The notes under the pieces: generated by a model
Told to the model about the DNA's origin: nothing
Seen by the model: the letters and a program-made list of their open reading frames with translations, nothing else
The model's database searches: none
Shown here: positions 4,281 to 34,674 of the stretch, one piece after another
How positions within the stretch are numbered: position 1 is the stretch's first letter
How the letters are laid out: every line of letters starts with the position of its first letter
Assembly: GCA_964620965.1 (NCBI GenBank)
Contig: CAZUHV010000003.1
Coordinates: 98,093-162,092 of the forward strand
Direction: 5' to 3'
From: an uncultured Pseudomonadales bacterium
GTDB taxonomy: Bacteria > Patescibacteriota > Microgenomatia > UBA1400 > PJMF01
Length of the DNA stretch: 64,000 nucleotides
Program-made: the position numbers and the translations under genes

Positions 4281-4283
4281 GGT

Positions 4284-16757: not shown

Positions 16758-16760
16758 TAT

Positions 16761-17324: not shown

Positions 17325-17349
17325 TCCAAGTAGTGCCGGTCACATCTTT

Positions 17350-18714: not shown

Positions 18715-21700
18715 CTAGTTCACTATCCACCAGTTGAATGAAACATCTGCTGATGCAGGAGAGTCAAATCCAACTACAAATTCGCCTTCATTTTCTGGGG
18801 TATTTGGATCGTCTTGCGCTTGAGATTTAACAAAGAGAACTTTATTATCTGTGCTGCCAACTGCAGTGACATAGACTAAGCTGTCGTTTGTAACAATTCC
18901 AGATTTAATGGTAACTTTGTCTGAACCAGCTTTTATTGTAGCTTTACCAGAGGTTTTGTTAGTTGAAAGTTCGTTTGTATCGCTAGATCCCAAGTTCTGA
19001 CTTTCAAGTCCGATTCCGCCAGCTATATCAACTTTTCCAGCAAATGCTGCATTTCCTTCTGCTGAGAAGGTGGCAACTGGGGTTCCAACTTCGTTGATGA
19101 TTTCGAATCTAGATTTTTTGACCTCGTTGGTTTGAGTATCAACACCAGCAACTTGAACCTGGAGTGGGTTACCAAACTCTGTAGGTTTGAGCATGTCTGT
19201 GAGGAGTGTGCCTGCGATTTTTGCATTACCTGTAACATCAAGGTCTCCATTGACAGTGACTTTGCCTGAATCATCAATTGTAACTATGCCCGCGAGTAAT
19301 TCGATAGAACCTTGACCTTCTGGTTGAATTTTAAGAATTTGGTTCGCAGGATCTGCGGTTGTGTATCTGATTAATCCATCAGCTATCAACATGCTGTCAC
19401 CAACAAAAAGGTCATTACCAACTGCTAGTGAATCAGACACGTATGCACCACCATTTACCTTGAGGTATTTCTCTACAAACAGGGCAGATCCAGTAAGAAC
19501 AACATCGTCGCTTGTCATGCTGAGTTCTGCAAAGCTTAAGTCCAAATCTGCGCTAGAGCTTGCATTGAACTCTGTTTTGTTAACTGTTGCATAGAGATCT
19601 TCCATAAATGAAGCAGAGGAGGTGCTTTCGTTAGTACCAAGTAAAATATCGAGTAAACCAGGTTGTTGTAGGGTAGTTGCAACTTTATTCTCAAAATCAT
19701 AGATAGAGTTCGCATACAAAGTGCCAGATACAGTAGCGGTAACAAGGTCTGCGGTTGTAGCTCTAACGCTTTCTAGTTGGGCAATTCCTGCCTCTAGGGC
19801 AGAAATACGTGCGGATGCAGCTGTAACTTCATTAGCAAGCAAGGTTCCAACCTGAGCAGTTCCAGAAATGGTAGCATTTTGAGCAACGAGGGTTCCAGAG
19901 ATGCTTACTTCATTTGCAAGTAAGTTACCGAGTTTTGAGTTTTGAGCAGTTAATGTTCCAGAAACCGTTGCATCTCCTTGAACCAGAAGTGAACCAAGAG
20001 TAGAAGAGCCAGATGCAGCTATAGAGTTAGTAATTACATCTTTAGAATTAAGGTTTCCAAGTAAGCTGAGGTTTCCGTCTTTGTTTATTTCTGCAGTTGT
20101 TTTTGTTCCATCGCTAAATTTGACTTTACCAGAGTTTGTAGCAGTGATGACAGTGTCGTTTCCGACTGGAGAAACAAGGGTAGAGTTATTTGAAGCGGTC
20201 TGGTTTCCAACAACACTTTGAATATAGCTGACTAGTGATTGACCGTTAATTGTAATAGTTTCTGCAGAGAGATTCTTGATTGTTGCAGTATTTTCAACGA
20301 TTAACTCTTTGGTGTTAGTAAGGCCTGCTTGGATTATGCCCAATATAGCTGAACGGGCACCAATAATTGTACTCAAAACATTATTATTTTTAGATTCTGT
20401 AACAATGTAATCAGATCCTGATTGAGTAATAACTATGCCTCCTATAGAGTCAAACATGATGTTGTTATTTTCCAAATTTTTCAGTTTGATTTGGTGCTTT
20501 TGTATTTCTGAAAGTAGTAGTGGCGCCAAGAATTGGTAAGAAACACCAGCAGGACTGCCATCTGTATCATAAAATGCCATTTCTGGGATTGTTTGAGCAA
20601 CCTCTTCAGCAATAAGTCCGTATTGGATTGTTCCCAAGCTATCCTTATATTCAAACTTTACGGGTCTTAAGTCATAAAGTTTCTTTGAAGTATTTTCTTG
20701 TATATTTTCTACGTTTGTTTTGTTTTTGATAGATGAAGATAAGTATCCTAGCTGACCATCAGAATTGACATAAACATTACGTGTACTTGAGGTAGTATTG
20801 TAAACTCCTGGCGCATATATGATTCCAGTACTACCTATTGTTAAACGTGTAGTGTTATTTGTCCTGAAATTCATAACATTGTTAAATGGGTTGTTTAAAT
20901 AAACCTGGTCAGTGTCCATCCATAATACTGAGTAATCAGTTCCACCTCTTTCTATTTTATATGCGTTAGTGCTTGAACTGGTATTGTCTTCAATTACAAT
21001 ACCTCCTCCGACAACGTCAAGAACTTGTGAAGCGGTTGTTGTTCCAATTCCAAGATTACCTGCAATATCAACATTTGTTCCATTTCCTCTCAAAAAATAG
21101 TTTACAGAAGTATTACTGTCTGCAAGGATAGAGTATCCACCTTCTTGAGTAATACCAAAGTAATCTGTACTACTATCATCACGAAGTACTATTCCATAGT
21201 TGGAAGTATTAGACTTAAGTTCAATATAACCATTCAAGTGAATCCAATCGTCTGAATTTTCGCCCATCGTTGCATCATCGTCAATGTACCCAGCGGCACC
21301 AATTTGAATATTTCCGCTTACTACTAATTTTTGTCCTGGACTCGTTGACCCAATACCCACATTTCCATCAGAATCTATAACCATTCTTTCTGTTAGAGAC
21401 CCTGCAGTGCTTTGTGTATAGAAACGGAGTATTCCAGGAACAATAGCTCCGCTAATTGTTCCTTCTGTATCAAAAGTAATTCTGCCGGCTTCAGACCAAG
21501 TGCTAGAAGCGCTTCTTCCATAGGCACGAAGCAAGAGAATGTCATCTCCAGTAGTTACAACAGATGGTGATGCTGCTGAACCTCTTGATTTTCTAATATT
21601 AAAGTGAACTCCAGTAGAGTTTGCAGTTGATTGTTGTGCATACATATCATTTGCGCTTGCATCGAATTGGAAGCCTCCAGTACTATCGCCTGCAATGATA

Positions 21701-24700
21701 TCTCCAGTTGCTGCAGTAACAATTGCAACAGGTGCATCTCCAACTGTTAGTGCTCCGTTTACATGAAGTCTTGTTTGTGGAGTAGAGGTAGATAAACCAA
21801 TATTTCCACCTGCTTCAACAAACATCACGTTTCCTGAGACTCCTTCTTCAATTAAGCTGAATCCGTTGAGTGCATTCCAGTCGTTTGCCCAACTCCAGTC
21901 GTGTCCATCTACATCTGTGTTTTCCATTCTGATTCTGCTATCTCCTGGATCAGCAATATGCAAGATTGTTCCTGGAGCAGTGGTTCCAATACCGATATTC
22001 CCACTAACAATGGACATATAGTAAGAGTTAGATATATATGAATGACCAAAGTTGATTGTATTTCCAATTCCACCTCCCGTCATAATATTTAGTCCGCCCC
22101 CATAGCTTGAGATTAGATTTGTTCCTGCAAAGGAAGAAGAGTTTGCATCAGAGTAACTTGATAAAGTTAGACTATTATCTCCACCTGCTACAAGGAGTGT
22201 AGTTGCTGCAGATGTTCCACTTGCTGTGTTATTTATTGCAACGGAAGTTAGAGCATCTTGATTTTTTTCTACAACCAAAAGCCTGCTTGGAGCAGTGGTT
22301 CCAATACCAACATTTGCTCCATCTATAACCAAGTAGTCATCTCCATATAAACCAATTCTTGCATCATAGTCTGTTCCGCCAATATCATTTTGGAAGTCCA
22401 GGTGAGGAATTCCACCGCCGCTTGTAAGTTCAATTGCATAGTTTCCACTTAAATCTTCTCCAGTTCGGAATCCAGGTCCGTTTGGAGTTGAATCCCTTCC
22501 AACACCTACAACATGTAGTTTTGAATCAGAGGTAGTGGTTCCAATACCAATGTTCCCCTCATGGTACATATTTCCACCTTCAGAGTAGACAGAGTAGTTA
22601 GAGGAGCTTCCAACATTCATATTGGCGATTTGTATACCTTTAAGGTGGTTGATTGTTCCACCACTAACACCTGGTGTGTACACTCTAACTAGTGCTAAGT
22701 TATCAACTATTGCTCCAGTGTAGACATCTGCGGCAGAGGTAAGGCCTTCTGAGTATGAAGTTGTGCCTCCATTTCCCCAGAACTTAAGTTGTGAAGAGTT
22801 TCCTTGTAATCCAGACAAAGTTCCAGAGGTGTGTGTTGTGCCAGTGACAGTTCTATATCCATATGCAGTCATTGCTCCAGAAACAGATTGAGTTATTTCA
22901 TTCATAAAGCCAATATAATCACCTGAACCAGAAGAGTTTGTTTTTACAACATGTAACTGAGAGGTTGGGCTTGTAGTTCCAATACCTAAATTCCCTGTAT
23001 CAGTTAGTCTCATTAGTTCGGTACTGGCATTATGAAGGAACTTAAAAGCATGGTTTGAACCATCATTATCAGCATCCATAGTAAAGTTAATATCTTGGTC
23101 ACTTTTAATTTCAGCTACTCCTGTGTCTCCGCTAAAGTACAGTTCTACACCTGCAGAGTTTGCTATGTCTAATTTCGCAGCTGGAGTAATAGAACCAATA
23201 CCGACATTACCACCATCAAGAACAGTGAAGACTTCTGTAGATCCATCAAATAAGTTAAGGATATCTTCGGTTGAGCTATTGCGAACGTCAAGTCTTGCAC
23301 CTGGAGTTGTGGTTCCAATACCTGCATTACTTGCAAGTACCATAGAAGTTGTGCCACCAGCAGGATCAACATAATAGGAACTATTGCTCACATCAGAAAA
23401 TCTTTCTGCGTATAAATATCCAGTATTTGCCATTCTAAATCTAGTTACACCTGCAGAGTTACTTGCTGTAAGAATATCCTGATCCCCAAGTTCTTTGAGT
23501 AAGACCAATGCTTTTCCTGTTACTGCAGTATTAACTTCAAAGCCATGTGTTGGGGTTGCAGTTCCGATACCAACTTTACCAATATTATCAATTACTAGTC
23601 TTTCAGTTCCAGCAGTATCAAATCTGATGTAGTCTTCGTCTGCAGACTCCTCAACCTGAATTTTTGTATCTCCGTCTGCATCAGAAATACCAGAAGCTAT
23701 TATGTCTCCTGAAGAATAAATATTTGTGAACCTTCTTGAAGCAGAGCCAAGAGAATAGGTATCGTCTGCTGTTGGGCCAATGTTTCCGGCAACTTCGAGT
23801 AAGAAACTTGTTGGGGCAGTGGTTCCAATACCGACGTTTCCTGTAGAAGTAATCACAAACTCTGCGGTTGCATCTGCGTCTGGATCAAAGCCGAAGTAAT
23901 TATCTGTGGTGTTGTAAGTAAGGATTCCTTCATCACCTGAATTACCAATATGGATACTTGCTCCTTTTACATACAAGGAATCCCATCTTACGGAATCTGA
24001 ACCTAAACTACTTGCTCCGTCTGAAGCAGGAAGCAGATCATCAGATAGAATGAAATTAGAAGAATCCCATCTAAGATATTCTGTGCCTGCATTGCCAAAG
24101 TACAAATAGTTTGCAAGCTCTATTTCTCCAGCAACGTCGAGTTTTTGACCTGGAGTCGTGGTGCCGATACCAATATTGCCTGCATCTGTAATTACCATAT
24201 CTGGAGAAACTAAACTTCCTCCTCCCGTGAAACGGAGACTCCCGTCATTGTACTGCCCAAGTCCTGCAGGGTTTGGTGTGCCATCATTATCACTTTGGAA
24301 GAATAGTGAAGCATCATTAGCAGAGCCAACGTTTGTATCTGTTGTTATGAATAATTGACTTGCACTGCTTGTTCTATGAATTTGTAATGCTGAAAGTGTT
24401 GTGTTGGTGCCAATACCGATATTAGCATTAAGACCATCAAGGAAGAACGCGTTAGCATTGGTATCAGATTCAATTCTAAAATCTGAGTCATTGCCTTGTT
24501 CGTTGAATACAGCAGAACCGTTAGAGTAGAGTTGGATATCAGCAGAGGCTGTAGAAGTGCCACCAATAGCCAAATCAACTACAGAAGCATATTCGTTTTT
24601 AGGATGGAGTACATTAAGAGTATTAGCCCAAAGAGTTGCACTTGTTGCAATAGAAGCAGGATCAGTCCAGGTCATTGCACCACCACCAGAAGAGGTGAGG

Positions 24701-27700
24701 AGATATCCAGAAGTGCCAGCATTACCAGCCACTCTAATTGCGTCTGTCAAATTAAATTCCCCGACTAGGTCAAGTGCATATCCTGGAGCTGTAGAACCAA
24801 TTCCGACGTTGCCATTTGCATCAATGGTTACTTTTTCGGTTCCAGCGGTTACTATACCAATAGTATCTATCGCAGGTCTGTACAATCCAGTGTTAGTGTC
24901 ACTTGCAAATGAGAATGTTGGTCCACCAACAGTTCCATTACCTGCATAGTAGGTTCGAGCCGTTACATCGTTGTCTACTGATACATCTCCATCTTCATCA
25001 ACAGTAAATCTTGTAGAATCCGCATCTGTCCCAATTTGGAATAGTATTTGGTTTGGAGTAGGGCTATTTTGGAAAATATTTAGGTTAGCAACTGGTGTTG
25101 CGGTGCCGAGTCCAATGTTACCATCAGAACCTTGAAAGAAGAACGCGTTGGCATTTGTGTCTGATTCAATTCTAAAGTCAGAGTCATTGCCTTGTTCGTT
25201 GAATACAGCAGAACCATTAGAGTATAGTTGGATATCAGCAGAGGCAGTAGAGGTGCCACCGATAGCTAAATCAACAACAGAAGCATATTCGTTTTTAGGA
25301 TGGAAGACATTTAATGTGTTTGCCCAAAGGTTAGCTCCAGAACCTAAGGTACTTGGGTCAGTCCAGGTCATAGCACCACCAGCAGATGAAGTGAGGAGGT
25401 ATCCAGAAGTACCAGCATCACCTGCAACTCTAATTGCATCTGTGAGGTTGAATTCGCCAACTAAATCAAGAGTGTATCCTGGAGAGGAGCTACCAATACC
25501 AACATTACCACCATTTGCAGAAAGGATGACAGCATCTGTTGCAGCATCACCGATAAGTAGGTTTCCAGTATTGTTCATGATGTAGGAGTTTGTGCCGTCA
25601 TGGTATAGCTCTAAATCTTGTCCTTCACCAAGTATGATGTTTCCACCACCACTGGTTCCACCTGCTACCCCGTCGCCATCTTCATCTAAAATCCAGTCTC
25701 CAGCCTCACCCCAAATGCCATAGTTATTCGAAGAAGCTGCTGTGATAGCAGTCATATACAGACCATATAAAGTTTGGAAGGAACCACCCCCTGTATCACT
25801 AATTGTTTGTAATCTAAAACCATGTCCAACGGCTACGTTTCCTGATCCAGATAGGTACATATTTGCGTTATACGCAGTTCCATAGGTAATTGTTCCAGCT
25901 CCAGAATTAGTAAATGCTCCAGTAACAGCAGTTCCATTTGTTAAAGTTCCAGCAGTTCCTTGATAGTTGATTGATCCTTGAACACCAGAAAGACCGGAAA
26001 GTGTATTACTTGATCCACTAGGGGTTGTTGCAGAACCAGAAATAGCATTATATGCAGATGCAGCACTATCTATACCATAGACACTTACTCCCAATGCATT
26101 TTGAGTGCTACCTCCGGTATAGCTTGAGACGTATCCAATAGATGCAGCTCCTGTAGAAGAGTTACCTGCACTAGTAGTAATGTTGAGGGGAGCAGTAGGG
26201 CTAGTACTGCCGATACCTACGTTTCCTGCAAAATAGTTTTTTGTGCTACTGCCAGATTGATATACACCATAACTACTAGAAGAGTTGTTTGCAATATCAA
26301 CTGCTCTAAAGTCAGCTGCGCTTGTAAGAGTTGGGTTAATATAAACACCTCTGGTAATTGCAGTTGTTCCACCTGTTTGGTTAATAGTAGATCCAAAATA
26401 GAGACCGTTATAAGAGATATCTTTTGTTGCTGCATTTGGAGAAAATGATTGAGCAACTTTAACTCCATTAACTATGCTGCCAACCAAATTATTTGTAGGG
26501 TCGAAAGTTATTGTATTTGCTAGATCTAGGCCTCCGATATTGCTTGAGTTATTTGTAATATTTTGTGTGGTAGAAAGTTTAATGCCACTTGCATTTGAAA
26601 TAGTTCTACCAGTGTAGAGTTCTAACCCAGCAGTAGTTGTAGTAGTGAGTGCTGATGGGTACATGACAAAACCATTACTGCTTGTTCCAGGAGTATTAAA
26701 CAAGTAAGTATCTGAGGTGTCATCGTAGTATAAGGAAAGCTGTCCCCCAGAACTAACAACGTCGTTAAAAAAAGTAAATCTGTTAATACGGAATGAGTTT
26801 CCACCACTATTGCCTAGTGTACCAATACCTATATTTCCTCCGACAGAGCCTACTTGAAGTTGTGAGGTTGGGTTTGTTGTTCCAATTCCCAAGTTTCCAC
26901 CATTAAAGTATGAACTTCCATTACTATTAAGAGTAATATCTTGGTTCGAAGAGGCATCATAGATAAATAATTGTTGATCTACACCAGATCTAAACATTCT
27001 AGTTTGTCCATATTCGGAACTTAAATAAAGAATTCCATAACTGCTTGCTCCAGTTCTAGCTTCAACTTTACCTCCATAAATATCTGTTGAAAGTTGGAGC
27101 ACAGCATTTGTTGAATAGTCATTGCTTAATTCAAATTTAGAACCTGGTGTTGAAGTTCCAATACCAATATTTCCATCAGAACCCTGAAGGAAAAAGGCGT
27201 TAGCATTTGTGTCTGATTCAATTCTAAAGTCAGAGTCATTGCCTTGTTCGTTGAATACAGCAGAACCATTAGAGTATAGTTGGATATCAGCAGAGGCAGT
27301 GGATGTACCACCAATAGCTAAATCAACAACGCTTGCATATTCATTTTTAGGATGAAGGACATTAAGGGTATTAGCCCAAAGATTAAAACCAGAACCTAAA
27401 GTGCTTGGGTCAGTCCAGGTCATTGCGCCACCACCAGATGAGGTTAGTAAGTATCCAGAGGTTCCGGCGTCGTTGTTTGCATATAGTCCTGAGGTGATGT
27501 TTACTGCTCCATTAACATCAAGTTTTCTTGTAGGACTAATAGAGCCAATTCCTAGATTTCCACTAGCGTTAATCACACTCAAGGCTGTTCCTGCACTATC
27601 TTGCCACTCTTGGATATTTGCAGTACCACTTGGTCCTCCTTTGACAACTAAGCCTTTGCCTCCAGCATATGTCGCAGAGATAGTAGCAGTGTTAGCAGCA

Positions 27701-30700
27701 AGATCGCCACTAACATCAAGCCTTGCACCTGGAGTTGTGGTTCCAATACCTGCATTACCTGCAAGAGTCATAGAAGTTGTGCTTCCAGCAGGGTCTACAT
27801 AGTAAGAATCATTACTAATATCGGAGAATCTTTCTGCATATACGTATCCAGTATTTGCTATTCTCATTCTAGTAGTGCCGCTTGAGCTTGCTGTGAAAAT
27901 ATCTTGGTTACCTGTTTGGTTTAGGATTGCTAAAGCTTTACCTGTTGCTGCACCATCAATATTGAGTAGTCCGATTGGGGTTGCAGAACCAATCCCAACA
28001 TTTCCTAGACCATTAACAATAAACTCTGTTGTTGGAGTACCATCATAGTCGCTTATAAGTTCTAGTAAGCTCCAGTTAGCGGTTGGTGATTGAGCAGATC
28101 TTCCAAGTATTACAGGACCTGTAGGGGTGGCACTTCCATTTGTTCTAGAGAAGGCTCCAACAGCAGCACCAGGTATGTTGGTAACACTTGAATTAACACT
28201 CATTGCACCTACAGAACCAGATTGTAATTCTGTAGCAGTGAACTCTGATCTTCCACGTCCCATCATTACAAACATTGTGCTTTCGTCGCCATCAATAAAA
28301 CGAAATGCAACATGATTGGATCCCAGTGATGTTCCTGTATCTTGTGTTTTTGCTTGGAATGTTATTCTTCCTGCTCCGTTACCATTATCGGCCTGGCTAC
28401 CAACTAGTTTTAGAGCTCCATTATATGTGCTTCCTCCATTAACTATACCAGTTATTAGTAATCCACCATTACTAGAATTATTGATCCCGATTCTTCCAAA
28501 AGTATCGGCTGGAAGTACTGTTGTAACACTATGTGTAATACTTGAACTAGAAAGATCAAGACCTGGAGTTGTACTACTTTGTAGCTCTAGTTTGTTTGTT
28601 GGGTTAGTAGTGCCAATCCCAACATTTCCACCAAAATAAGCTTGGCCATTAGATTGTAAGTGTATATCTGCAGAAGCAGTAGAAGTACCACCTAAAACTA
28701 AGTCAACTATGCTAGCATACTCATCTTTAGGATGTAGTACATTAAGAGTATTTTCCCACCAGCCAGCCCCAGTAATATCATCTGGATCAGTCCAGGTGTT
28801 GGCACCACCACCAGAAGAGGTTAGGAAGTATCCAGTTGTCCCAGCGTCTCCAGCTATTCTGATTGCGTCTGTTAGATTGAGCTCACCGGTAATTTGGGTG
28901 TTGCCAACAACGTCAAGTTTATATCCAGGAGAAGCAGATCCTATCCCCACATTGCCACTGCTGTTAATTGCAAAAATATCACCGTTACTTGCTGCACTAC
29001 TTCTGATTTGGAAGTAATCAGCTGTTGGTGTTGCACCACCTTTGAAGTACGCAACAGGAGAGGTAACAGAAGCAGCATTTTGAACGACTTTAAAAGAAGC
29101 GTCAACATAGTTGAGAGAGATCCCAACACCTCTAGAAGTTCCTACAGTACCACCGATAAGAGAAATATCTCCAGCAGACATACCAGTGCCAACGTTATAT
29201 CCAAAGTCCATTCTGGTAGCATATCCACCAGAAGTAATAGAGGAATTAGTAGAGTTAGTAGCCATGTAGATAGCAGCGGTACCAGAAGGACCAGCACTGA
29301 TATTTAGTCTACCGGCCCCAGTGTAAGAAGAACCAATACCAACATTACCATCATTTGCGATAATAAATTGAGTAGTACCAGAAGCAGAGGCAGTAAAGAT
29401 AGCTTGATTTCCAGTTTGATTTAGAATAGTGAGAGCTTTCCCTGTTGCTGCGCCGTTTACATTTAAAAGACCAATAGGAGCGCTACTACCAATTCCAACA
29501 TTGCCTCCAAAGTATGATTGTGTAGTTCCAGCAGTATAGATTGCATAGTTGTTTGTACCTTGAGTCAAAGCTTCTACGTATAAACCGTATAGGTTTGGAA
29601 TAGTTCCGCTTGTTATTGTGTTTCTAGCTTGGAAAAATGCGGTACTACCTGTGACTGATCCTAAAGCTCCGTGTAGTCTAGACTGAATACCAATAAGTTC
29701 TCCAGTAACTGTGGAAGATGCGTTATTTGTCACTATGCTTCTGCTACCATATTCATTACCAATTGAATATGCACCAGAGATATTTGTATAAACATATGAT
29801 CCATCTATTGTTGATGTAGTGCTTGCATCTGCATACACAAATGCAAGTATACCGGCGGCTCCGCCACTTCCTGTTTTATGTAAATCTATGTTGTAACCAT
29901 AAACAGAACTAGAATTATTTATTGTTCTTGAACCTGCTAAGATTGATCTGCTTGCTTGTCCTGGATCTGCGAAAAGGTAGATCCCATTTGATGGAATTAT
30001 TCCAAGTAAACCAGAGGAATCTACTCCAAATGTTGTTTCTTTAGATCCTGTAGGCTGAGTTATTTTGAATTGTGGACTTGTTGTTGAACTTACCTCTAAT
30101 TTTGCACTAGGAGCAGTAGAACCAATTCCGACATTGCCACCAAAGTAAGCTTGACCATTCGATTGTAAGTGGATATCTGCAGAGGCAGTGGATGTGCCAC
30201 CAATAATAAGATCAACTACAGAAGCATACTCGTCGGTAGGATGATACACATTTAAAGTATTTGTCCAAAGAGTAGAAGCAACTAATGAAGCAGGGTCAGT
30301 CCAGGTCATAGCACCACCGCCGGATGAAGTGAGGAGGTAGCCGGAAGTGCCAGCGTCGCCAGAAGAACGAATAGCATCTGTTAGATTGAGTTCACCAGTG
30401 ATTTGGGTGTTGCCAACAACGTCAAGTTTATATCCTGGAGAAGAAGATCCTATCCCCACATTGCCACTGCTGTTAATTGCAAAAATATCACCGTTACTTG
30501 CTGCACTACTTCTGATTTGGAAGTAATCAGCTGTTGGTGTTGCACCACCTTTGAAGTACGCAACAGGAGAGGTAACAGAAGCAGCATTTTGAACGACTTT
30601 AAAAGAAGCGTCAACATAGTTGAGAGAGATCCCAACACCTCTAGAAGTTCCTACAGTACCACCGATAAGAGAAATATCTCCAGCAGACATACCAGTGCCA

Positions 30701-33700
30701 ACGTTATATCCAAAGTCCATTCTGGTAGCATATCCACCAGAAGTAATAGAGGAATTAGTAGAGTTAGTAGCCATGTAGATAGCAGCGGTACCAGAAGGAC
30801 CAGCACTGATATTTAGTCTACCGGCCCCAGTGTAAGAAGAACCAATACCAACATTACCATCATTTGCGATAATAAATTGAGTAGTACCAGAAGCAGAGGC
30901 AGTAAAGATAGCTTGATTTCCAGTTTGATTTAGAATAGTGAGAGCTTTCCCTGTTGCTGCGCCGTTTACATTTAAAAGACCAATAGGAGCGCTACTACCA
31001 ATTCCAACATTGCCTCCAAAGTATGATTGTGTAGTTCCAGCAGTATAGATTGCATAGTTGTTTGTACCTTGAGTCAAAGCTTCTACGTATAAACCGTATA
31101 GGTTTGGAATAGTTCCGCTTGTTATTGTGTTTCTAGCTTGGAAAAATGCGGTACTACCTGTGACTGATCCTAAAGCTCCGTGTAGTCTAGACTGAATACC
31201 AATAAGTTCTCCAGTAACTGTGGAAGATGCGTTATTTGTCACTATGCTTCTGCTACCATATTCATTACCAATTGAATATGCACCAGAGATATTTGTATAA
31301 ACATATGATCCATCTATTGTTGATGTAGTGCTTGCATCTGCATACACAAATGCAAGTATACCGGCGGCTCCGCCACTTCCTGTTTTATGTAAATCTATGT
31401 TGTAACCATAAACAGAACTAGAATTATTTATTGTTCTTGAACCTGCTAAGATTGATCTGCTTGCTTGTCCTGGATCTGCGAAAAGGTAGATCCCATTTGA
31501 TGGAATTATTCCAAGTAAACCAGAGGAATCTACTCCAAATGTTGTTTCTTTAGATCCTGTAGGCTGAGTTATTTTGAATTGTGGACTTGTTGTTGAACTT
31601 ACCTCTAATTTTGCACTAGGAGCAGTAGAACCAATTCCGACATTGCCACCAAAGTAAGCTTGACCATTCGATTGTAAGTGGATATCTGCAGAGGCAGTGG
31701 ATGTGCCACCAATAATAAGATCAACTACAGAAGCATACTCGTCGGTAGGATGATACACATTTAAAGTATTTGTCCAAAGAGTAGAAGCAACTAATGAAGC
31801 AGGGTCAGTCCAGGTCATAGCACCACCGCCGGATGAAGTGAGGAGGTAGCCGGAAGTGCCAGCGTCGCCAGAAGAACGAATAGCATCTGTTAGATTGAGT
31901 TCACCAGTGATTTGGGTGTTGCCAACAACGTCAAGTTTATATCCTGGAGAAGAAGATCCTATCCCCACATTGCCACTGCTGTTAATTGCAAAAATATCTC
32001 CTGTAGCTGAACCATTTGTAGCAATTTGCAAGTAGTCAAGTGTTGGGCTAGATTCATGCTCAAATCTTACTAGTGCAATGTCGGAGTTGCCAGTGAAACC
32101 AACTACCCCAAAGCTGGCAGCTGTTGTAGGTGCAGCAGGACCAACAAAAGCTCCATTTGCGCCATTTCCTCCCGCAGTGAGTTGCATTACTAGTTCGGAA
32201 GTAGAAACATAAAAATATTGTGATGAACCAGATCTATACATTAGAGAGTCGTCGGAGTTGCCTGTGCCTGTTCCAATAGAAGCCTCTGTAGTTCCTGCTT
32301 GTTGAAATAGGATTCTAGTTTCTTGACCATGAGTTTGGTGGTTCATTTTAATGTACTGGTTAGCATCGCTGTAGAGTTCTAGTAATGCAGTTGCATTGCT
32401 AGTGCCTATACCAACATTTCCTGAAGTATTCACAGAAGATAAAACAGTCCCAGCACTATTTTGCCATTCTTGAATATTAGCAGTGCCACTTGGGCCTCCT
32501 TTTGCTATGAGTGCAGTGCCACCTGCATAGGTAGCGGAGAAGGTTGCTCCAGGTGCATGTAAGTAACCTTCTAGGTCTAAATCTGACTGAACAATAACTT
32601 TACCCGTTCCATCGGGAGCGAGAGTAATGTTGCCATTTGAACCCGAAGATGTCTGTAAAACTAAAGCTTGAGCTTCAATAGTGAAAGATCCTGAGGTTGC
32701 TTTAAGAGAAGGCGAAACTTCCCCTAACAAGACTTGTCCACCGGCATCCATTGTGAGAATTGTGTTTGTGGTTGCCGCTCCTGTGGCAGAAACAGGGTAT
32801 CCTTGAACGGTTTCAGAGTTGAGAGCATAGGCGACGGTTTTGATTGATTGTCTTGGGTCAAGAGTTTCAGATTCAATCTCAACTTCTAACCAGACGTTTG
32901 AGTTCTCAGTAAAGACATTTTCTGTGATTTCAGATCCACAGTCATCTCCTAGACCAACATTAAAAATACCATCTTGATCTGGAGTGACGCTACAAGTTCC
33001 AGAACTCCAGAGTTGAGTTCCTCCAGAACTGTTGTCATACAGTCTAAAAGCCATATCAGTTGAGGTAGTTATTGGGTTTTGTGCGGCATCTGTCAATCTA
33101 CCTTGAAAGGAAAGCTCTCGATTTGGTCGTACAGGGGTACTTGGATACGCAAATGGAGTAGGTGCTTGCTTGATAAATTGTTGATAGCCCAATACACCAA
33201 GTCCAATTGCAAACACAACCATCATTACCAGGTTTAAATATGGCAAAAATTGCTTATTTCTTTTGGTATTTATTTGGTTTGCGAAGTCTTTTAAGCTAGA
33301 TCTAATGCCTGCATATATTTTTCGAGTTTCCTCACTATTTGTAAGTTCTTTCTCTGATTTTGTTGTATTACCTGATTTTTTTTCTAACTCTTCTGCTGCA
33401 AAGTCTGGAACTGGGAGTTTCCAACCATGCTTTACTTGGTTTTGGTTTGTTTGGTGAGCATGAACAAGGGTATTTGGCTTGAGTTTTAATTCAAATTTTT
33501 GTGGAGTAGAGGTTGTAAATTTTGCATTTGGGATTATTGAGTGAGTAGATACAGTTTCTCTCTGAGAGGAAACTGTGGTTGTTTGATTACCAACTCGGCT
33601 ATGATCTTGAGCAATAACTTCTTGAGTTTCAAAGAGCTGTCCTTGAAGTAAGTGGATCCATGAAGAGACTCTCTCAATGAGACTTCTGTCTTGAGCCCAG

Positions 33701-34674
33701 AGAGAAAATTGAGTAATACTTGTCACTTTTCTTTTGATACTACTTGGTTTGAGTCCGGTTTTTCTCTGTAAGACAACAAAATTCTCTATATTTTCTTGAG
33801 TAATAATCTTATCCAGATCAGGTTTGCCTGTGGACTCGAAGAATTGGTTGAGGTCAGATTTGTAGTTTTTAATTGTTGCTTGTGAATGTCCATCGATTTC
33901 AAGACTAATCAAGAAGTTCTCAAGTTCTGTTTGAGCATTTTTTTGGTGTGATGCAGAGTTTTGGGTAGAGACAGAACTTGTTTTGTGTAGATAATTTGGT
34001 TTTCCTGTGACTAGGGATTCTAAGTCTGAAATCCAGAATGAAGCATCTTGAACAATTTTTTCAGTTTCTGCCCAGAGGGCAAACTGAGATATACTCGAGA
34101 GTTTGCGTTTTATCGTAGACAACTTGAGTCCTGAATCGAGTTGATTATGAACAAAATTTCTTAAATTCTCTGGTTCAAAGAGGTTTGAAATTTGTTTTGT
34201 TTGAGAAAGACTAACAAACTGTTGAATATCACTGCGGTAGTTTTTGATGGTTGAGTCGGAGCGATTATCAGCTTTGATTGAAGATAAAAACTCATGAAGG
34301 TAAATATCAATTTCGAGTGGAGTGTATTCTGCAACAAACTTTTTTAAGAGGACTGCCTGCTTATGAGCGACATTTTCGGCAGTTAAGAACTTTTCTAGGT
34401 CATCAATCGACCAATGTTCTGCCCATTTTGGATCATCAATCTTGCGCTTATTGATAAATACAATAAATTTTTCTGTTGTCAACAAAGCCAAATCTTTGGA
34501 GACATGGTGACTTTCCAAAAATGTGGAAAAGACAGAGAGGAGGCTGGTGATATATCTGTTTTGGGCAGTCATCTTTTTTTGTTGCTTTAGTACCTTTTTT
34601 CTCAGACGTATTAGACGTCTTAGATAGCGCATATTTAAGTTTAGATAACTCGAGTTCACTTGGCAATACCTCAA
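18715..34674 (-). CDS. Giant (5319 aa) single-pass surface protein. The N-terminal ~480-aa cytoplasmic part has two phage-integrase SAM-like (core-binding) domains; then a TM; then a huge repetitive tail-fibre-like ectodomain with an internal Peptidase-S74-type intramolecular chaperone domain and a ~640-aa coiled/β tail
   Basis: An uninterrupted 15.96-kb ORF. The N-terminus has S.STIKNYRSDIQQFVSL...GLKLSTIKRKLSSISQFALWA and a second copy ATIKNYKSDLNQFFES...GLKPSSIKRKVTSITQFSLWA, matching the NTxxxYRxDL..F...G.sxxTxxRxLSxxxxFxxW pattern of XerD-type N-terminal domains. The TM is FLPYLNLVMMVVFAIGLGVLGY. The ectodomain has dozens of G(N)VGIG(T/S)xxP..KLDVxG and TSGYLLTSSGGGAMTWTDP modules. The S74-like segment SSIKNKTNVENIQENTSKKLYDLRPVKFEYKDSLGTIQYGLIAEEVAQTIPEMAFYDTDGSPAGVSYQFLAPLLLSEIQKHQIKLKNLE lies at about 20470-20740. 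Confidence 0.8.
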   Translation of the reverse strand: MRYCQVNSSYLNLNMRYLRRLIRLRKKVLKQQKKMTAQNRYITSLLSVFSTFLESHHVSKDLALLTTEKFIVFINKRKIDDPKWAEHWSIDDLEKFLTAENVAHKQAVLLKKFVAEYTPLEIDIYLHEFLSSIKADNRSDSTIKNYRSDIQQFVSLSQTKQISNLFEPENLRNFVHNQLDSGLKLSTIKRKLSSISQFALWAETEKIVQDASFWISDLESLVTGKPNYLHKTSSVSTQNSASHQKNAQTELENFLISLEIDGHSQATIKNYKSDLNQFFESTGKPDLDKIITQENIENFVVLQRKTGLKPSSIKRKVTSITQFSLWAQDRSLIERVSSWIHLLQGQLFETQEVIAQDHSRVGNQTTTVSSQRETVSTHSIIPNAKFTTSTPQKFELKLKPNTLVHAHQTNQNQVKHGWKLPVPDFAAEELEKKSGNTTKSEKELTNSEETRKIYAGIRSSLKDFANQINTKRNKQFLPYLNLVMMVVFAIGLGVLGYQQFIKQAPTPFAYPSTPVRPNRELSFQGRLTDAAQNPITTSTDMAFRLYDNSSGGTQLWSSGTCSVTPDQDGIFNVGLGDDCGSEITENVFTENSNVWLEVEIESETLDPRQSIKTVAYALNSETVQGYPVSATGAATTNTILTMDAGGQVLLGEVSPSLKATSGSFTIEAQALVLQTSSGSNGNITLAPDGTGKVIVQSDLDLEGYLHAPGATFSATYAGGTALIAKGGPSGTANIQEWQNSAGTVLSSVNTSGNVGIGTSNATALLELYSDANQYIKMNHQTHGQETRILFQQAGTTEASIGTGTGNSDDSLMYRSGSSQYFYVSTSELVMQLTAGGNGANGAFVGPAAPTTAASFGVVGFTGNSDIALVRFEHESSPTLDYLQIATNGSATGDIFAINSSGNVGIGSSSPGYKLDVVGNTQITGELNLTDAIRSSGDAGTSGYLLTSSGGGAMTWTDPASLVASTLWTNTLNVYHPTDEYASVVDLIIGGTSTASADIHLQSNGQAYFGGNVGIGSTAPSAKLEVSSTTSPQFKITQPTGSKETTFGVDSSGLLGIIPSNGIYLFADPGQASRSILAGSRTINNSSSVYGYNIDLHKTGSGGAAGILAFVYADASTTSTIDGSYVYTNISGAYSIGNEYGSRSIVTNNASSTVTGELIGIQSRLHGALGSVTGSTAFFQARNTITSGTIPNLYGLYVEALTQGTNNYAIYTAGTTQSYFGGNVGIGSSAPIGLLNVNGAATGKALTILNQTGNQAIFTASASGTTQFIIANDGNVGIGSSYTGAGRLNISAGPSGTAAIYMATNSTNSSITSGGYATRMDFGYNVGTGMSAGDISLIGGTVGTSRGVGISLNYVDASFKVVQNAASVTSPVAYFKGGATPTADYFQIRSSAASNGDIFAINSSGNVGIGSSSPGYKLDVVGNTQITGELNLTDAIRSSGDAGTSGYLLTSSGGGAMTWTDPASLVASTLWTNTLNVYHPTDEYASVVDLIIGGTSTASADIHLQSNGQAYFGGNVGIGSTAPSAKLEVSSTTSPQFKITQPTGSKETTFGVDSSGLLGIIPSNGIYLFADPGQASRSILAGSRTINNSSSVYGYNIDLHKTGSGGAAGILAFVYADASTTSTIDGSYVYTNISGAYSIGNEYGSRSIVTNNASSTVTGELIGIQSRLHGALGSVTGSTAFFQARNTITSGTIPNLYGLYVEALTQGTNNYAIYTAGTTQSYFGGNVGIGSSAPIGLLNVNGAATGKALTILNQTGNQAIFTASASGTTQFIIANDGNVGIGSSYTGAGRLNISAGPSGTAAIYMATNSTNSSITSGGYATRMDFGYNVGTGMSAGDISLIGGTVGTSRGVGISLNYVDASFKVVQNAASVTSPVAYFKGGATPTADYFQIRSSAASNGDIFAINSSGNVGIGSASPGYKLDVVGNTQITGELNLTDAIRIAGDAGTTGYFLTSSGGGANTWTDPDDITGAGWWENTLNVLHPKDEYASIVDLVLGGTSTASADIHLQSNGQAYFGGNVGIGTTNPTNKLELQSSTTPGLDLSSSSITHSVTTVLPADTFGRIGINNSSNGGLLITGIVNGGSTYNGALKLVGSQADNGNGAGRITFQAKTQDTGTSLGSNHVAFRFIDGDESTMFVMMGRGRSEFTATELQSGSVGAMSVNSSVTNIPGAAVGAFSRTNGSATPTGPVILGRSAQSPTANWSLLELISDYDGTPTTEFIVNGLGNVGIGSATPIGLLNIDGAATGKALAILNQTGNQDIFTASSSGTTRMRIANTGYVYAERFSDISNDSYYVDPAGSTTSMTLAGNAGIGTTTPGARLDVSGDLAANTATISATYAGGKGLVVKGGPSGTANIQEWQDSAGTALSVINASGNLGIGSISPTRKLDVNGAVNITSGLYANNDAGTSGYLLTSSGGGAMTWTDPSTLGSGFNLWANTLNVLHPKNEYASVVDLAIGGTSTASADIQLYSNGSAVFNEQGNDSDFRIESDTNANAFFLQGSDGNIGIGTSTPGSKFELSNDYSTNAVLQLSTDIYGGKVEARTGASSYGILYLSSEYGQTRMFRSGVDQQLFIYDASSNQDITLNSNGSSYFNGGNLGIGTTNPTSQLQVGSVGGNIGIGTLGNSGGNSFRINRFTFFNDVVSSGGQLSLYYDDTSDTYLFNTPGTSSNGFVMYPSALTTTTTAGLELYTGRTISNASGIKLSTTQNITNNSSNIGGLDLANTITFDPTNNLVGSIVNGVKVAQSFSPNAATKDISYNGLYFGSTINQTGGTTAITRGVYINPTLTSAADFRAVDIANNSSSSYGVYQSGSSTKNYFAGNVGIGSTSPTAPLNITTSAGNSSTGAASIGYVSSYTGGSTQNALGVSVYGIDSAASAYNAISGSATTPSGSSNTLSGLSGVQGSINYQGTAGTLTNGTAVTGAFTNSGAGTITYGTAYNANMYLSGSGNVAVGHGFRLQTISDTGGGSFQTLYGLYMTAITAASSNNYGIWGEAGDWILDEDGDGVAGGTSGGGNIILGEGQDLELYHDGTNSYIMNNTGNLLIGDAATDAVILSANGGNVGIGSSSPGYTLDLVGEFNLTDAIRVAGDAGTSGYLLTSSAGGAMTWTDPSTLGSGANLWANTLNVFHPKNEYASVVDLAIGGTSTASADIQLYSNGSAVFNEQGNDSDFRIESDTNANAFFFQGSDGNIGLGTATPVANLNIFQNSPTPNQILFQIGTDADSTRFTVDEDGDVSVDNDVTARTYYAGNGTVGGPTFSFASDTNTGLYRPAIDTIGIVTAGTEKVTIDANGNVGIGSTAPGYALDLVGEFNLTDAIRVAGNAGTSGYLLTSSGGGAMTWTDPASIATSATLWANTLNVLHPKNEYASVVDLAIGGTSTASADIQLYSNGSAVFNEQGNDSDFRIESDTNANAFFLDGLNANIGIGTNTTLSALQIHRTSSASQLFITTDTNVGSANDASLFFQSDNDGTPNPAGLGQYNDGSLRFTGGGSLVSPDMVITDAGNIGIGTTTPGQKLDVAGEIELANYLYFGNAGTEYLRWDSSNFILSDDLLPASDGASSLGSDSVRWDSLYVKGASIHIGNSGDEGILTYNTTDNYFGFDPDADATAEFVITSTGNVGIGTTAPTSFLLEVAGNIGPTADDTYSLGSASRRFTNIYSSGDIIASGISDADGDTKIQVEESADEDYIRFDTAGTERLVIDNIGKVGIGTATPTHGFEVNTAVTGKALVLLKELGDQDILTASNSAGVTRFRMANTGYLYAERFSDVSNSSYYVDPAGGTTSMVLASNAGIGTTTPGARLDVRNSSTEDILNLFDGSTEVFTVLDGGNVGIGSITPAAKLDIANSAGVELYFSGDTGVAEIKSDQDINFTMDADNDGSNHAFKFLHNASTELMRLTDTGNLGIGTTSPTSQLHVVKTNSSGSGDYIGFMNEITQSVSGAMTAYGYRTVTGTTHTSGTLSGLQGNSSQLKFWGNGGTTSYSEGLTSAADVYTGAIVDNLALVRVYTPGVSGGTINHLKGIQIANMNVGSSSNYSVYSEGGNMYHEGNIGIGTTTSDSKLHVVGVGRDSTPNGPGFRTGEDLSGNYAIELTSGGGIPHLDFQNDIGGTDYDARIGLYGDDYLVIDGANVGIGTTAPSRLLVVEKNQDALTSVAINNTASGTSAATTLLVAGGDNSLTLSSYSDANSSSFAGTNLISSYGGGLNIMTGGGIGNTINFGHSYISNSYYMSIVSGNIGIGTTAPGTILHIADPGDSRIRMENTDVDGHDWSWANDWNALNGFSLIEEGVSGNVMFVEAGGNIGLSTSTPQTRLHVNGALTVGDAPVAIVTAATGDIIAGDSTGGFQFDASANDMYAQQSTANSTGVHFNIRKSRGSAASPSVVTTGDDILLLRAYGRSASSTWSEAGRITFDTEGTISGAIVPGILRFYTQSTAGSLTERMVIDSDGNVGIGSTSPGQKLVVSGNIQIGAAGYIDDDATMGENSDDWIHLNGYIELKSNTSNYGIVLRDDSSTDYFGITQEGGYSILADSNTSVNYFLRGNGTNVDIAGNLGIGTTTASQVLDVVGGGIVIEDNTSSSTNAYKIERGGTDYSVLWMDTDQVYLNNPFNNVMNFRTNNTTRLTIGSTGIIYAPGVYNTTSSTRNVYVNSDGQLGYLSSSIKNKTNVENIQENTSKKLYDLRPVKFEYKDSLGTIQYGLIAEEVAQTIPEMAFYDTDGSPAGVSYQFLAPLLLSEIQKHQIKLKNLENNNIMFDSIGGIVITQSGSDYIVTESKNNNVLSTIIGARSAILGIIQAGLTNTKELIVENTATIKNLSAETITINGQSLVSYIQSVVGNQTASNNSTLVSPVGNDTVITATNSGKVKFSDGTKTTAEINKDGNLSLLGNLNSKDVITNSIAASGSSTLGSLLVQGDATVSGTLTAQNSKLGNLLANEVSISGTLVAQNATISGTAQVGTLLANEVTAASARISALEAGIAQLESVRATTADLVTATVSGTLYANSIYDFENKVATTLQQPGLLDILLGTNESTSSASFMEDLYATVNKTEFNASSSADLDLSFAELSMTSDDVVLTGSALFVEKYLKVNGGAYVSDSLAVGNDLFVGDSMLIADGLIRYTTADPANQILKIQPEGQGSIELLAGIVTIDDSGKVTVNGDLDVTGNAKIAGTLLTDMLKPTEFGNPLQVQVAGVDTQTNEVKKSRFEIINEVGTPVATFSAEGNAAFAGKVDIAGGIGLESQNLGSSDTNELSTNKTSGKATIKAGSDKVTIKSGIVTNDSLVYVTAVGSTDNKVLFVKSQAQDDPNTPENEGEFVVGFDSPASADVSFNWWIVN
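20470..20740 (-). other. Peptidase S74-like (tail-fibre/endosialidase intramolecular chaperone) domain, internal to the giant protein
   Basis: The Ser...Lys spacing (SSIKNK), the ...LRPVxFxYK...GLIAEEVxxxxPExx...G...VxYxxLxxLLxxxIQ pattern, and a coiled-coil end all match the autoproteolytic C-terminal chaperone domain family. Confidence 0.55.
28880..31990. repeat. Near-perfect tandem duplication (2 x 1509 bp) inside the giant gene, flanked by more diverged copies of the same module
   Basis: DNA at 28,9xx re-occurs at +1509 (30,4xx) with near-identical bases, and a third copy at 31,9xx begins to diverge. The antisense track ORFs 28894..29307 and 30403..30816 have identical 137-aa translations apart from 2 aa. 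At protein level the ~503-aa block ...DIFAINSSGNVGIGSSSPGYKLDVVGNTQITGELNLTDAIRSSGDAGTSGYLLTSSGGGAMTWTDPASLVASTLW... occurs twice verbatim. Confidence 0.85.

Follow-up and report, generated by a model that had tools for sequence, protein, structure and literature searches.

The stretch of DNA analysed in this study (64,000 nucleotides, referred to as the window) carries on its reverse strand an uninterrupted open reading frame which encodes a giant fibre protein of 5319 amino acids, if translation starts at a TTG codon. An alternative ATG at position 34572 (MTAQNRYITS...) would yield a protein of 5285 amino acids. As this N-terminus agrees with those of the full-length homologues P0052, P0055 and P0059, which begin with MTAQxxYITSxL, the ATG is favoured and is the probable true start, with the TTG lying 34 codons too far upstream. 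The reading frame and the features of its N-terminal and central parts are:

18715..34674, reverse strand: giant fibre ORF, uninterrupted, 5319 aa if TTG start
33655..34374, reverse strand: Phage_int_SAM-like domains in tandem (aa ~101-340; PF02899, PF13495)
33172..33249, reverse strand: single transmembrane helix (aa 476-501; Kyte-Doolittle)
20782..33117, reverse strand: repetitive tail-fibre-like region, predicted extracellular (aa ~520-4631; motif count and PHROG match)

In the N-terminal part, Pfam recognised PF02899 in two stretches (E 7e-16) and also matched PF13495; an Int_SAM-like N-terminal domain is common to 51 of the 64 full-length relatives. When the entire protein was scanned in 19-residue windows, only the segment aa 476-501 exceeded 1.8 on the Kyte-Doolittle scale, and the same scan revealed no hydrophobic segment downstream of the S74 domain described below. 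Lys and Arg residues on the N-terminal side of this helix suggest, following the positive-inside rule, an N-in/C-out anchor, and the Int_SAM-like domains are predicted to be cytoplasmic. The shaft that follows (~4100 aa) holds 28 G[NS][VIL]G[IL]G motifs and is matched by the tail-fibre family PHROG 9942 (E 5e-9), while the PHROGs match nothing else in the protein. Within the shaft a unit of 1509 nt is duplicated in tandem (28936-32001), with one mismatch in the 1557 nt compared. A Pfam match to the Hia Trp-ring, which covered only 23 aa and scored 20.8 bits (cut-off 27), was rejected as beta-repeat noise, and Bactofilin matches in relatives were set aside for the same reason.

Other products of the window are RadA, Rho, LeuRS, a V/A-type ATPase, an ABC substrate-binding protein and a VirD4-like ATPase. 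The window ORFs scanned did not include any phage structural or replication gene. Relatives of the giant protein are found in Woesebacteria and Pacebacteria. The giant fibre gene is thus a cellular gene in the genome of an ultra-small Patescibacteria (CPR) bacterium and not a phage gene, so that the phage tail-spike context in which the initial annotation had placed it does not apply. Searches of the literature turned up no account of such an architecture for Patescibacteria.

The S74 domain and its predicted catalytic dyad

The initial annotation had proposed that an S74 chaperone domain lies inside the protein and is followed by ~640 residues, which autoproteolysis would release or leave non-covalently bound unless the domain is a non-cleaving variant. 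The features that bear on this proposal are:

20458..20736, reverse strand: Peptidase_S74 chaperone/self-cleavage domain (aa 4647-4739; Pfam and own profile)
20581-20736, reverse strand: Pfam core of the S74 domain (aa 4647-4698)
20734..20736, reverse strand: codon of Ser4647, predicted nucleophile; the scissile bond would be directly N-terminal
20719..20721, reverse strand: codon of Lys4652, putative general base in the Ser-Lys dyad, +5 from Ser4647

All peptides quoted for the domain are present, namely SSIKNKTNVENIQ (aa 4647-4659; 20736-20698), LRPVKFEYK (aa 4669-4677), GLIAEEV (aa 4686-4692) and QFLAPLLLSEIQKHQ (aa 4714-4728). The Pfam family PF13884 matches with 34.5 bits (cut-off 22; E 2.6e-8) over model positions 1-55 of 58, with model position 1 corresponding to Ser4647, and our own S74 profile covers aa 4633-4739 (E 2e-42). 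A search of the PDB with the S74-domain profile returned S74 chaperone domains only (6f45, 8jov, 7dc3, 8hqz, 3gud), among them that of MYRF (7dc3) with an E-value of 2.9e-9. The profile was needed to reach these structures, as a single-sequence phmmer search of the PDB, with the last 728 aa as query, gave a weak match to lambda gpJ and no S74 domain.

The codons 20719-20736 spell SSIKNK. In the profile alignment with solved S74 domains, which the initial annotation had suggested as a check, Ser4647 and Lys4652 fall on the catalytic positions: Ser4647 pairs with residue 1 of 3gud, the released domain of GA-1, and in the MYRF structure 7dc3 with the mutated site S587A, and Lys4652 occupies the +5 position of endoNF K916 and MYRF K592. 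The equivalence of MYRF S587/K592 with endoNF S911/K916 has been established, including mutational proof (PMC8326128). All 46 relatives with an S74 domain upstream of the same C-terminal module have both Ser and Lys, and the invariant positions of the S74 alignment (A3) comprise, besides these two, G4686, A4689, E4691 and P4697, so that the G-x-I-A-x-E...P core motif is present. After this motif the AF2 monomer model places a helix at aa 4721-4736, albeit with low confidence. The idea of a non-cleaving variant had been based on the deviation of S-x-x-K-x-K from SDxRLK. It finds no support, as the deviating positions (+1, +3 and +4) lie outside the dyad, which is intact, and as ordinary C-terminal S74 domains are most often spelled SS[IAL][RK][FY]K at this site, SSx[RK]xK being their usual pattern.

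The domain is clearly not located at the extreme C-terminus. Ser4647 is followed by 672 residues, the quoted helix by 591 and the whole domain by ~580, which makes the earlier figure of ~640 roughly right. In ~31 unrelated S74 proteins from the same search the Ser lies 90-231 aa from the C-terminus (median ~118); this set was used as background for the domain position instead of a search with the S74 profile, which gave nothing but fragments (203 aa at most). Judged by these alignments, the S74 domain is genuine, predicted to be catalytically intact and situated between the shaft and a C-terminal module of ~580 aa.

A second fibre protein with an internal S74 domain is encoded on the opposite strand:

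53746..60114, forward strand: paralogous fibre protein, 2122 aa, with N-terminal signal-anchor, internal S74 domain and ~210-aa tail
59170-59187, forward strand: SDIRLK of the paralogue (aa 1809-1814), S74 domain extending to ~59445
59731-59895, forward strand: H-lectin-like domain of the paralogue (H_lectin 22.8 bits, below the cut-off of 24)

The canonical SDIRLK, which had been assigned to 59165-59460 as a standard of comparison, is indeed present in the paralogue, with its exact site at 59170-59187. The S74 domain of this protein (Pfam E 4.7e-13) shares 31% identity with that of the giant protein, while the tails of the two proteins are without similarity. One relative of the paralogue, P0315, comes from the Patescibacteria MAG BroJett025.

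The C-terminal module and the domains that precede it

The region downstream of the S74 domain comprises:

18718..20457, reverse strand: C-terminal module conserved in Patescibacteria (aa 4740-5319), with the invariant FNWWIVN as its end (alignments A1 and A2)
19801..19977, reverse strand: beta-rich repeat segment (aa 4900-4958), weak gpJ match, containing the stretch formerly described as heptad-like
19741..19815, reverse strand: predicted long helix and coiled-coil candidate (aa 4954-4978, SARISALEAGIAQLESVRATTADLV; AF2 H363-387 of the 728-aa fragment)
18718..19002, reverse strand: terminal beta-sandwich domain (aa ~5225-5319; AF2 pLDDT 84-93)

The module was detected in 1306 cluster representatives (E<=1e-3), nearly always at the extreme C-terminus, and in at least 126 species genomes of the Patescibacteria type. 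Membrane-anchored fibre proteins ending in it reach 7697 aa. With 38-66% identity and collinear alignment to its relatives, it is the best-conserved part of the giant fibre family, which was previously undescribed and is defined in this study, with FNWW[ILV]V[NQ] as the module's ending. The giant protein possesses all five elements of this family, i.e., the Int_SAM-like N-terminus, one transmembrane helix, the repetitive shaft, the chaperone domain and the module. Neither Pfam nor NCBIfam holds a family for the module, and NCBIfam has none for the tail of the paralogue either. The module was also not found among 50,697 phage records, and IMG/VR gave no match to it. As far as its alignments indicate, it is a conserved lineage-specific unit and no arbitrary extension.

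The only resemblance of aa 4900-4958 at the sequence level is a weak one to the central tail fibre gpJ of phage lambda (8xcj/8iyk, E 0.02). The stretch regarded as heptad-like (aa 4915-4950) was modelled by AF2 as coil (pLDDT 25-36) and not as helix; the candidate helix lies next to it, at aa 4954-4978, and shows strong conservation among family members, with the columns R..LE....A in both A1 and A2. The AF2 monomer model of the 728-aa fragment has an overall pLDDT of 44 and is poor at the junction of S74 domain and module, so that only its last ~95 aa are reliable. These form the beta-sandwich, for which a Foldseek search of the PDB yielded the C-terminal domains of the Klebsiella K1 lyase (7w1c/7w1d) and of the Pam1 tailspike (7eea) with an E-value of 0.04. 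The fits have a probability of ~1, an rmsd of 2.4-3.4 A over 80-93 aligned columns and 22-25% identity. In BFVD, proteins with a "K1 capsule-specific polysaccharide lyase C-terminal domain" were matched (E 3e-4 to 9e-4). A sequence-family match between the terminal beta-sandwich and the K1-lyase-type tailspike C-terminal domain was not obtained, and Pfam found no H-lectin (PF09458) in this domain in 16 family members. By hhalign the terminal domain is weakly linked to the H-lectin-like domain of the paralogue (E 0.003, probability 10%), and Foldseek compared it to Helix pomatia agglutinin with a probability of 0.06-0.07.

The S74 domain is not the only domain found directly upstream of the module. 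Among 150 module representatives, 46 have S74 in this place and 55 a G2-like domain, whereas none has both; the corresponding numbers in 80 species genomes with the module are 28 and 31. The sole PDB relative of the G2-like domain is the self-cleaving auto-chaperone of phi29 gp12 (Peptidase_G2), with a weak E-value of 0.005. The Asp and Glu that align with the residues of the gp12 cleavage site, where the released gp12 fragment starts, are kept in 87 of 88 and 89 of 90 cases, respectively. The G2-like assignment is nevertheless weak and relies on this PDB profile match and on two sub-threshold Pfam matches (best 22 bits, cut-off 25), as four of the clearest segments were not matched by Pfam Peptidase_G2. 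Even close relatives swap the type of chaperone: P0052 shares 66% module identity with the giant protein, yet carries the G2-like domain instead of S74. In ~15-20% of the module-bearing proteins the slot is filled by a third, uncharacterised domain (DPPYTI...APRFD), which has no relative in Pfam or the PDB and may be a new self-cleaving chaperone. Its invariant residues include D28, E50/E51 and R141, numbered after the first sequence of alignment A6. As two unrelated chaperones of self-cleaving type share one slot and both retain their cleavage residues, the pattern of conservation points to selection for cleavage at the junction of chaperone and module.

Known systems, proposed cleavage and competing explanations

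S74 is usually described as a disposable C-terminal chaperone of phage fibres. The phage representatives (K1F endoNF, the L-shaped tail fibre pb1 of T5, the GA-1 neck appendage and S16 gp37) belong to the same family as the domain of the giant protein and share with it the Ser/Lys(+5) dyad, the GxIAxE motif with a subsequent helix and the position downstream of a tail-fibre-like shaft. However, in these fibres S74 occupies the final ~90-160 residues, which are shed once folding is complete, whereas ~580 conserved residues follow it in the giant protein, which is, unlike them, cellular, membrane-anchored and ~5300 aa long. The only characterised precedent known to us for an internal S74 domain separating two functional halves is MYRF. 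Its ICA domain is likewise internal with a long region downstream, and both proteins have a DNA-binding-type domain and a transmembrane helix. Self-cleavage of MYRF by the Ser-Lys dyad depends on trimerisation and splits the protein into its two functional halves (PMC8326128); PMC3742440 as well as PMC8326128 describe this internal domain, with its hundreds of downstream residues, as cleaving efficiently. The DNA-binding domain of MYRF directly precedes the ICA domain on one and the same side of the membrane, the transmembrane helix comes downstream of the ICA domain, and cleavage frees the N-terminal trimer, a transcription factor. In contrast, the transmembrane helix of the giant protein is located ~4150 residues upstream of S74, with the Int_SAM-like domains across the membrane. 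As the helix thus lies upstream of S74 and the domains are on opposite sides, cleavage cannot release the Int_SAM-like domains, and this topology led us to reject a release of the N-terminal DNA-binding-type domain in the manner of MYRF.

Two further systems deserve comparison. A domain like the auto-chaperone of phi29 gp12 replaces S74 in about half of the relatives of the giant protein; it is absent from the giant protein itself, and in phi29 gp12 it is C-terminal with nothing after it. The chimeric adhesive fibre proteins of Bdellovibrio (Bd2439, Bd1334) are also cellular and phage-fibre-like, but much shorter, and no homology to the giant protein could be detected. Their C-terminal domains appeared in the Foldseek search with the terminal domain only as weak matches (ranks 22-32, probability <0.1), and a self-cleaving domain with a conserved module after it has, to our knowledge, not been reported for them.

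Taken together, the reading we lean towards, as probable though far from certain, is that the assembled trimer would cleave itself before Ser4647 and thereby separate the anchored fibre from a fragment consisting of S74 and module. The protein would be inserted via its single N-terminal transmembrane helix, leaving the Int_SAM-like domains in the cytoplasm. Three chains would then trimerise from the C-terminal end with S74 as nucleus, like the family does in phage fibres, and the assembled Ser4647-Lys4652 dyad, whose residues are observed to be conserved, would cut the bond before Ser4647. The anchored fibre (up to aa 4646) would part from the trimeric fragment of ~73 kDa per chain. The module would then be a conserved assembly or terminal unit, either required only until cleavage or deployed by it, and not a variable host-specific tip. 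Going by the conserved residues, detachment of a large C-terminal fragment by autoproteolysis is the better-supported of the two alternatives raised by the initial annotation. Nevertheless, the conservation of Ser and Lys could also have structural grounds, and the beta-sandwich of the module and the lectin-like domain of the paralogue look like functional distal tips, which would be lost upon cleavage. For endoNF, cleavage additionally requires an Arg of the upstream triple beta-helix (PMC8326128).

Another explanation, which we consider rather doubtful, is that S74 serves as folding and trimerisation nucleus only, with no cut or with pieces that stay together, and that the module is a permanent ligand-binding distal tip. 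The confidently predicted beta-sandwich of the terminal ~95 aa, similar to C-terminal domains of tailspikes, would suit such a role, as would the fibre-like beta repeats and the helix typical of trimeric fibres. The paralogue has an H-lectin-like domain behind its own S74 domain, to which the weak hhalign link leads, and the invariant Trp-Trp at the C-terminus would be compatible with sugar binding. A mere folding role, however, would not need two self-cleaving chemistries to be kept intact, as seen in the unbroken Ser/Lys conservation and the retained Asp and Glu of the alternative domain. As far as we know, all S74 domains that have been characterised, those of phage fibres as well as that of MYRF, cleave. 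Furthermore, the receptor-binding tips of phages are the most variable part of their fibres, while the module is conserved far beyond what is usual for a tip recognising a host. For MYRF, cleavage by the S74 domain is documented (PMC8326128).

A phage or prophage origin, with the ORF as tail-fibre or tailspike gene and its C-terminal part as receptor-binding extension, would account for the PHROG match in the shaft, for an S74 domain as is typical of phage fibres and for the fold matches of the tail, which are phage proteins. It appears highly improbable in view of the housekeeping neighbours without phage structural or replication genes among those scanned, the predicted cytoplasmic domain and membrane anchor, and a module that is present in so many Patescibacteria-type genomes but unmatched in the phage records and IMG/VR. 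Even less credible is an artefact, by which mis-assembly or the loss of a stop codon between two genes would have joined S74 and module. The near-perfect 1509-nt duplication may hint at an assembly problem, and the TTG start was probably called too far upstream, but the duplication lies ~8 kb from the junction, and dozens of independent genomes and metagenomes show the junction uninterrupted and in collinear order.

If the giant protein is not cleaved, what remains is a "tail fiber domain-containing protein" whose domains come in an unusual order. If it is cleaved, we would tentatively, and with considerable reservation, envisage a widespread, hitherto undescribed class of giant, two-part, auto-processed anchored fibres in Patescibacteria, whose slot is filled by S74, the gp12-like or the third domain, and in which cleavage sheds or arms a trimeric lectin-tipped unit. 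Such a cleavage might serve to mature or deploy the attachment fibres as the episymbionts assemble or employ them, and the cytoplasmic Int_SAM-like domains may link the fibre to intracellular events. In addition to a conserved C-terminal unit new to family databases and a candidate new self-cleaving domain, the family offers a case of unrelated self-cleaving-type chaperones being swapped into one position. The internal-S74 logic of MYRF would thereby be extended to a large bacterial family of surface proteins in a poorly understood lineage, which would provide a handle on the assembly of the 5000-residue CPR fibres, the probable mediators of contact with host cells.

An internal S74 domain in a giant fibre protein

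Positions 18715-34674 of the window (minus strand) form a single unbroken ORF of 5319 codons, which encodes the giant fibre protein to which all residue numbers below refer. Its main features outside the C-terminal part are:

34570-34674, minus strand: mechanical ORF start (TTG 34674) versus likely start (ATG 34572, 34 codons shorter), judged from homologue N-termini
33655-34374, minus strand: tandem Phage_int_SAM-like domains (Pfam), near the N-terminus
33172-33249, minus strand: single hydrophobic (transmembrane) helix, aa 476-501, with basic residues N-terminal to it
28936-32001, minus strand: 1509-nt unit repeated in tandem (about 2.03 copies, one mismatch in 1557 nt)

As full-length homologues begin with MTAQxxYITS..., translation likely starts at ATG 34572 (MTAQNRYITS...). 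The tandem unit corresponds to an exact protein repeat of 519 aa (aa 892-1410 = 1395-1913); it either was duplicated very recently or stems from an assembly error. The shaft of about 4100 residues is repetitive and tail-fibre-like, with 28 GNVGIG-type motifs, and a PHROG search yielded a tail-fibre match. The Int_SAM-like domains would lie inside the cell and the fibre outside, across the transmembrane helix. A DNA-binding-type domain would be tethered in this way to an extracellular fibre, and this N-terminus (SAM-like domains plus helix) is common to 51 of 64 full-length relatives.

The S74 peptides quoted in the initial annotation were all found between aa 4647 and 4728 (window 20736-20491). 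Pfam Peptidase_S74 aligns from its first model position with aa 4647-4698 (E 2.6e-8, 34.5 bits, cut-off 22), and our own profile, made from this domain plus relatives, spans aa 4633-4739. The domain is indeed internal, with 672 residues after Ser4647, 591 after the last quoted helix and about 580 after the whole chaperone domain. This position is unusual: in some 31 unrelated S74 proteins that the search also returned, the Ser lies only 90-231 residues (median about 118) from the C-terminus. Judged by its sequence, the domain belongs to Peptidase_S74, yet it lacks the usual positional feature of this family.

The profile alignment, which had been proposed as a check, places Ser4647 on the catalytic position and a Lys at position 6 (SSIKNK), and S, K, G, A, E and P are invariant among 15 aligned S74 segments. 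A PDB search with a profile of these segments returned S74 chaperone domains only (S16 gp37 6f45, 8jov, MYRF 7dc3, T5 fibre 8hqz, GA-1 3gud); Ser4647 aligns with the S587A position of MYRF and, in GA-1, with the first residue of the released fragment. S587/K592 of MYRF correspond to S911/K916 of endoNF, and alanine at either position abolishes cleavage (PMC8326128). The suggestion that the domain is a non-cleaving variant, since its S-x-x-K-x-K signature deviates from SDxRLK, does not hold, because the differing positions (+1, +3 and +4) are non-catalytic and SS[IAL][RK][FY]K occurs more often than any other spelling in ordinary C-terminal S74 domains.

A second fibre protein in the window also has an internal S74 domain, which makes this a recurring arrangement in this genome:

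53746-60114, plus strand: paralogue, 2122 aa, with an N-terminal signal-anchor

Its S74 domain (Pfam E 4.7e-13) carries the canonical SDIRLK at aa 1809; the two S74 domains are 31% identical. The 313 residues after the Ser comprise a low-complexity linker, an H-lectin-like domain (22.8 bits, cut-off 24) and an acidic tail, and by BLAST the two tails are unrelated. A single relative of the paralogue was detected (P0315); it comes from the Patescibacteria MAG BroJett025, which also yielded the best match to the module described below (L001).

A conserved C-terminal module of Patescibacteria

The tail of the giant is no random extension: it is collinear with partial and complete Patescibacteria proteins (30-59% identity) and ends in an invariant FNWWIVN. 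We refer to this conserved region of about 580 aa (aa 4740-5319) as the module. Of 1.84 billion cluster representatives, 1306 matched a module profile (aa 4738-5319, alignment A2) with E<=1e-3, 175 of them with E<=1e-30; these proteins reach 7697 aa, and with few exceptions they carry the match at their very C-terminus. Ten relatives were compared: nine share 38-66% module identity over 552-597 aa, the tenth (P0167) 29% over 453 aa. No other part of the family is as conserved and collinear; the shaft was alignable only piecewise across relatives.

Among one-genome-per-species contigs, at least 126 stretches encode a module relative. The taxonomic range is narrow: of the 80 loci listed, nearly every one is labelled Patescibacteria, 'Pseudomonadales' or 'Gammaproteobacteria', and isolate names with 'PATE' occur among the latter two. 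The closest relatives of the giant's C-terminal region are annotated as Woesebacteria, Pacebacteria, Collierbacteria or 'Patescibacteria group'. The titles 'uncultured Pseudomonadales' and 'Gammaproteobacteria' on many module genomes (L002, L003, L007, L014-L017, L063 etc.; isolate names e.g., HK-STAS-PATE-15) are probably mislabels of Patescibacteria MAGs. The closest public relative among the matches listed is a 2355 bp contig (L012, JAGQMZ010000056.1) of a MAG labelled Candidatus Saccharibacteria HKST-UBA55, with 98% protein identity to the giant's last 212 aa.

Neither 50,697 phage records nor IMG/VR yielded a match to the module, and no model in Pfam or NCBIfam covers it. The window itself is cellular and non-viral, with genes for RadA, Rho, LeuRS, V/A-type ATPase subunits, an ABC substrate-binding protein and a VirD4-like ATPase at a GC content of 32-43%; the initial phage framing is rejected. 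Near the giant (16095-17853 and 18233-18658, both plus strand) lie three consecutive small genes with candidate type IV pilin-like N-termini (…GFT[ML]IELL[IV]V…, recognised by eye) and, directly downstream of its 3′ end, a 141-aa ORF resembling, by eye, a PIN-domain (VapC-like) toxin.

Structure prediction of the monomeric C-terminal fragment gave a pLDDT of 44, as would be expected for an obligate trimer. The last ~95 residues are predicted as a β-sandwich (pLDDT 84-93) whose fold resembles the C-terminal domains of phage tailspike depolymerases: best PDB matches were Klebsiella K1 lyase (7w1c/7w1d) and the Pam1 tailspike (7eea) (E 0.04, rmsd 2.4-3.4 Å, 80-93 aligned columns), and BFVD yielded 'K1 lyase C-terminal domain' proteins (E 3e-4 to 9e-4). 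The sandwich (last ~90 aa) also occurs alone at the C-terminus of smaller ORFs of 381-410 aa adjoining giant genes (L062 4396-, L072 5630-, L077 3866-), which makes it an independent domain. The stretch formerly described as heptad-like is predicted to be coil, with a weak likeness to lambda gpJ, and is followed by a conserved predicted helix (aa 4954-4978).

Interchangeable domains upstream of the module

The slot occupied by S74 in the giant holds a second domain in many relatives, and no protein in the tabulated sets carries both.

Domains in the slot upstream of the module
150 listed representatives (of 1306): S74, 46; second domain, 55; neither, 15 (long enough); too short, 34
80 species genomes (83 module-bearing ORFs; listed of at least 126): S74, 28; second domain, 31; neither, 15; too short, 9

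Ser and Lys are kept in 46/46 proteins of the S74 group. The second domain (ADLAE...GIVS.NPG...ALSGRVPVKV...) has a single PDB relative (E 0.005), the pre-neck appendage auto-chaperone gp12 of phi29. In this alignment the invariant Asp falls on residue 1 of the released gp12 fragment and the invariant Glu on residue 4, where the non-cleaving crystal form 3suc has Gln. The assignment as gp12/G2-like is specific but weak, as Pfam Peptidase_G2 is sub-threshold or absent. Among 97 second domains the Asp is kept in 87/88 and the Glu in 89/90. Chaperone type is exchanged between close relatives while the module is kept: P0052 shares 66% module and 51% N-terminal domain identity with the giant, yet carries the G2-like domain.

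Most proteins with neither domain have a third conserved domain of about 150 aa (GKLDAGTIDPPYTING.KYATY...SDLWLFSK...SYRLTAPRFD) equally far from the C-terminus (alignment A6: L027, L045, L058, L065, L068, L074, L075, L078-L080; P0113, P0134, P0135, P0185). It has no relative in Pfam or PDB and may represent a novel self-processing chaperone. In P0117 (6192 aa) two chaperone-type domains stand in series at aa ~5250-5600: the end of a G2-like domain, the first ~100 aa of a module, a coiled-coil-like stretch, S74 (Pfam E 5e-12) and a full module. This layout hints at possible processing of such giants into several parts.

Proposed cleavage before the module

The slot is filled by either of two unrelated domains that share trimer-nucleating chaperone activity and self-cleavage, and in each the cleavage residues are near-invariant, which is most simply explained by selection for cleavage at this point. 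After trimerisation of its C-terminal end, the giant would be cut just before Ser4647, so that the fibre stays anchored in the membrane and S74 plus module (~73 kDa per chain) becomes a trimer of its own, which may leave or stay bound. The sequences show what the domain is, that its catalytic residues are conserved, how conserved and widespread the module is, and that the domains in front of it are interchangeable; membrane topology, trimerisation, cleavage, the fate of the fragment and the role of the module are inferred from them. Such a cut, the first alternative of the initial annotation, is what we favour, and we consider it reasonably probable, albeit unproven. Less probable, though plausible, is that the module is instead a permanent tip, non-cleaving or non-dissociating. 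The tailspike-like β-sandwich and the lectin-like domain behind the paralogue's S74 point to binding and would suit such a tip, but the high conservation of the module argues against a host-specific receptor tip.

To our knowledge, MYRF is the only characterised precedent for an internal S74 domain. There, cleavage frees a DNA-binding trimer from a downstream transmembrane anchor. This logic is inapplicable to the giant, because its only transmembrane helix lies ~4150 residues upstream of S74 with the Int_SAM-like domains on its other side, and a MYRF-type release is thus excluded. No description of this architecture or of the module was found in the literature. The presence of interchangeable self-cleaving domains before a lineage-wide module, together with a possible third such domain, makes this family worth following.
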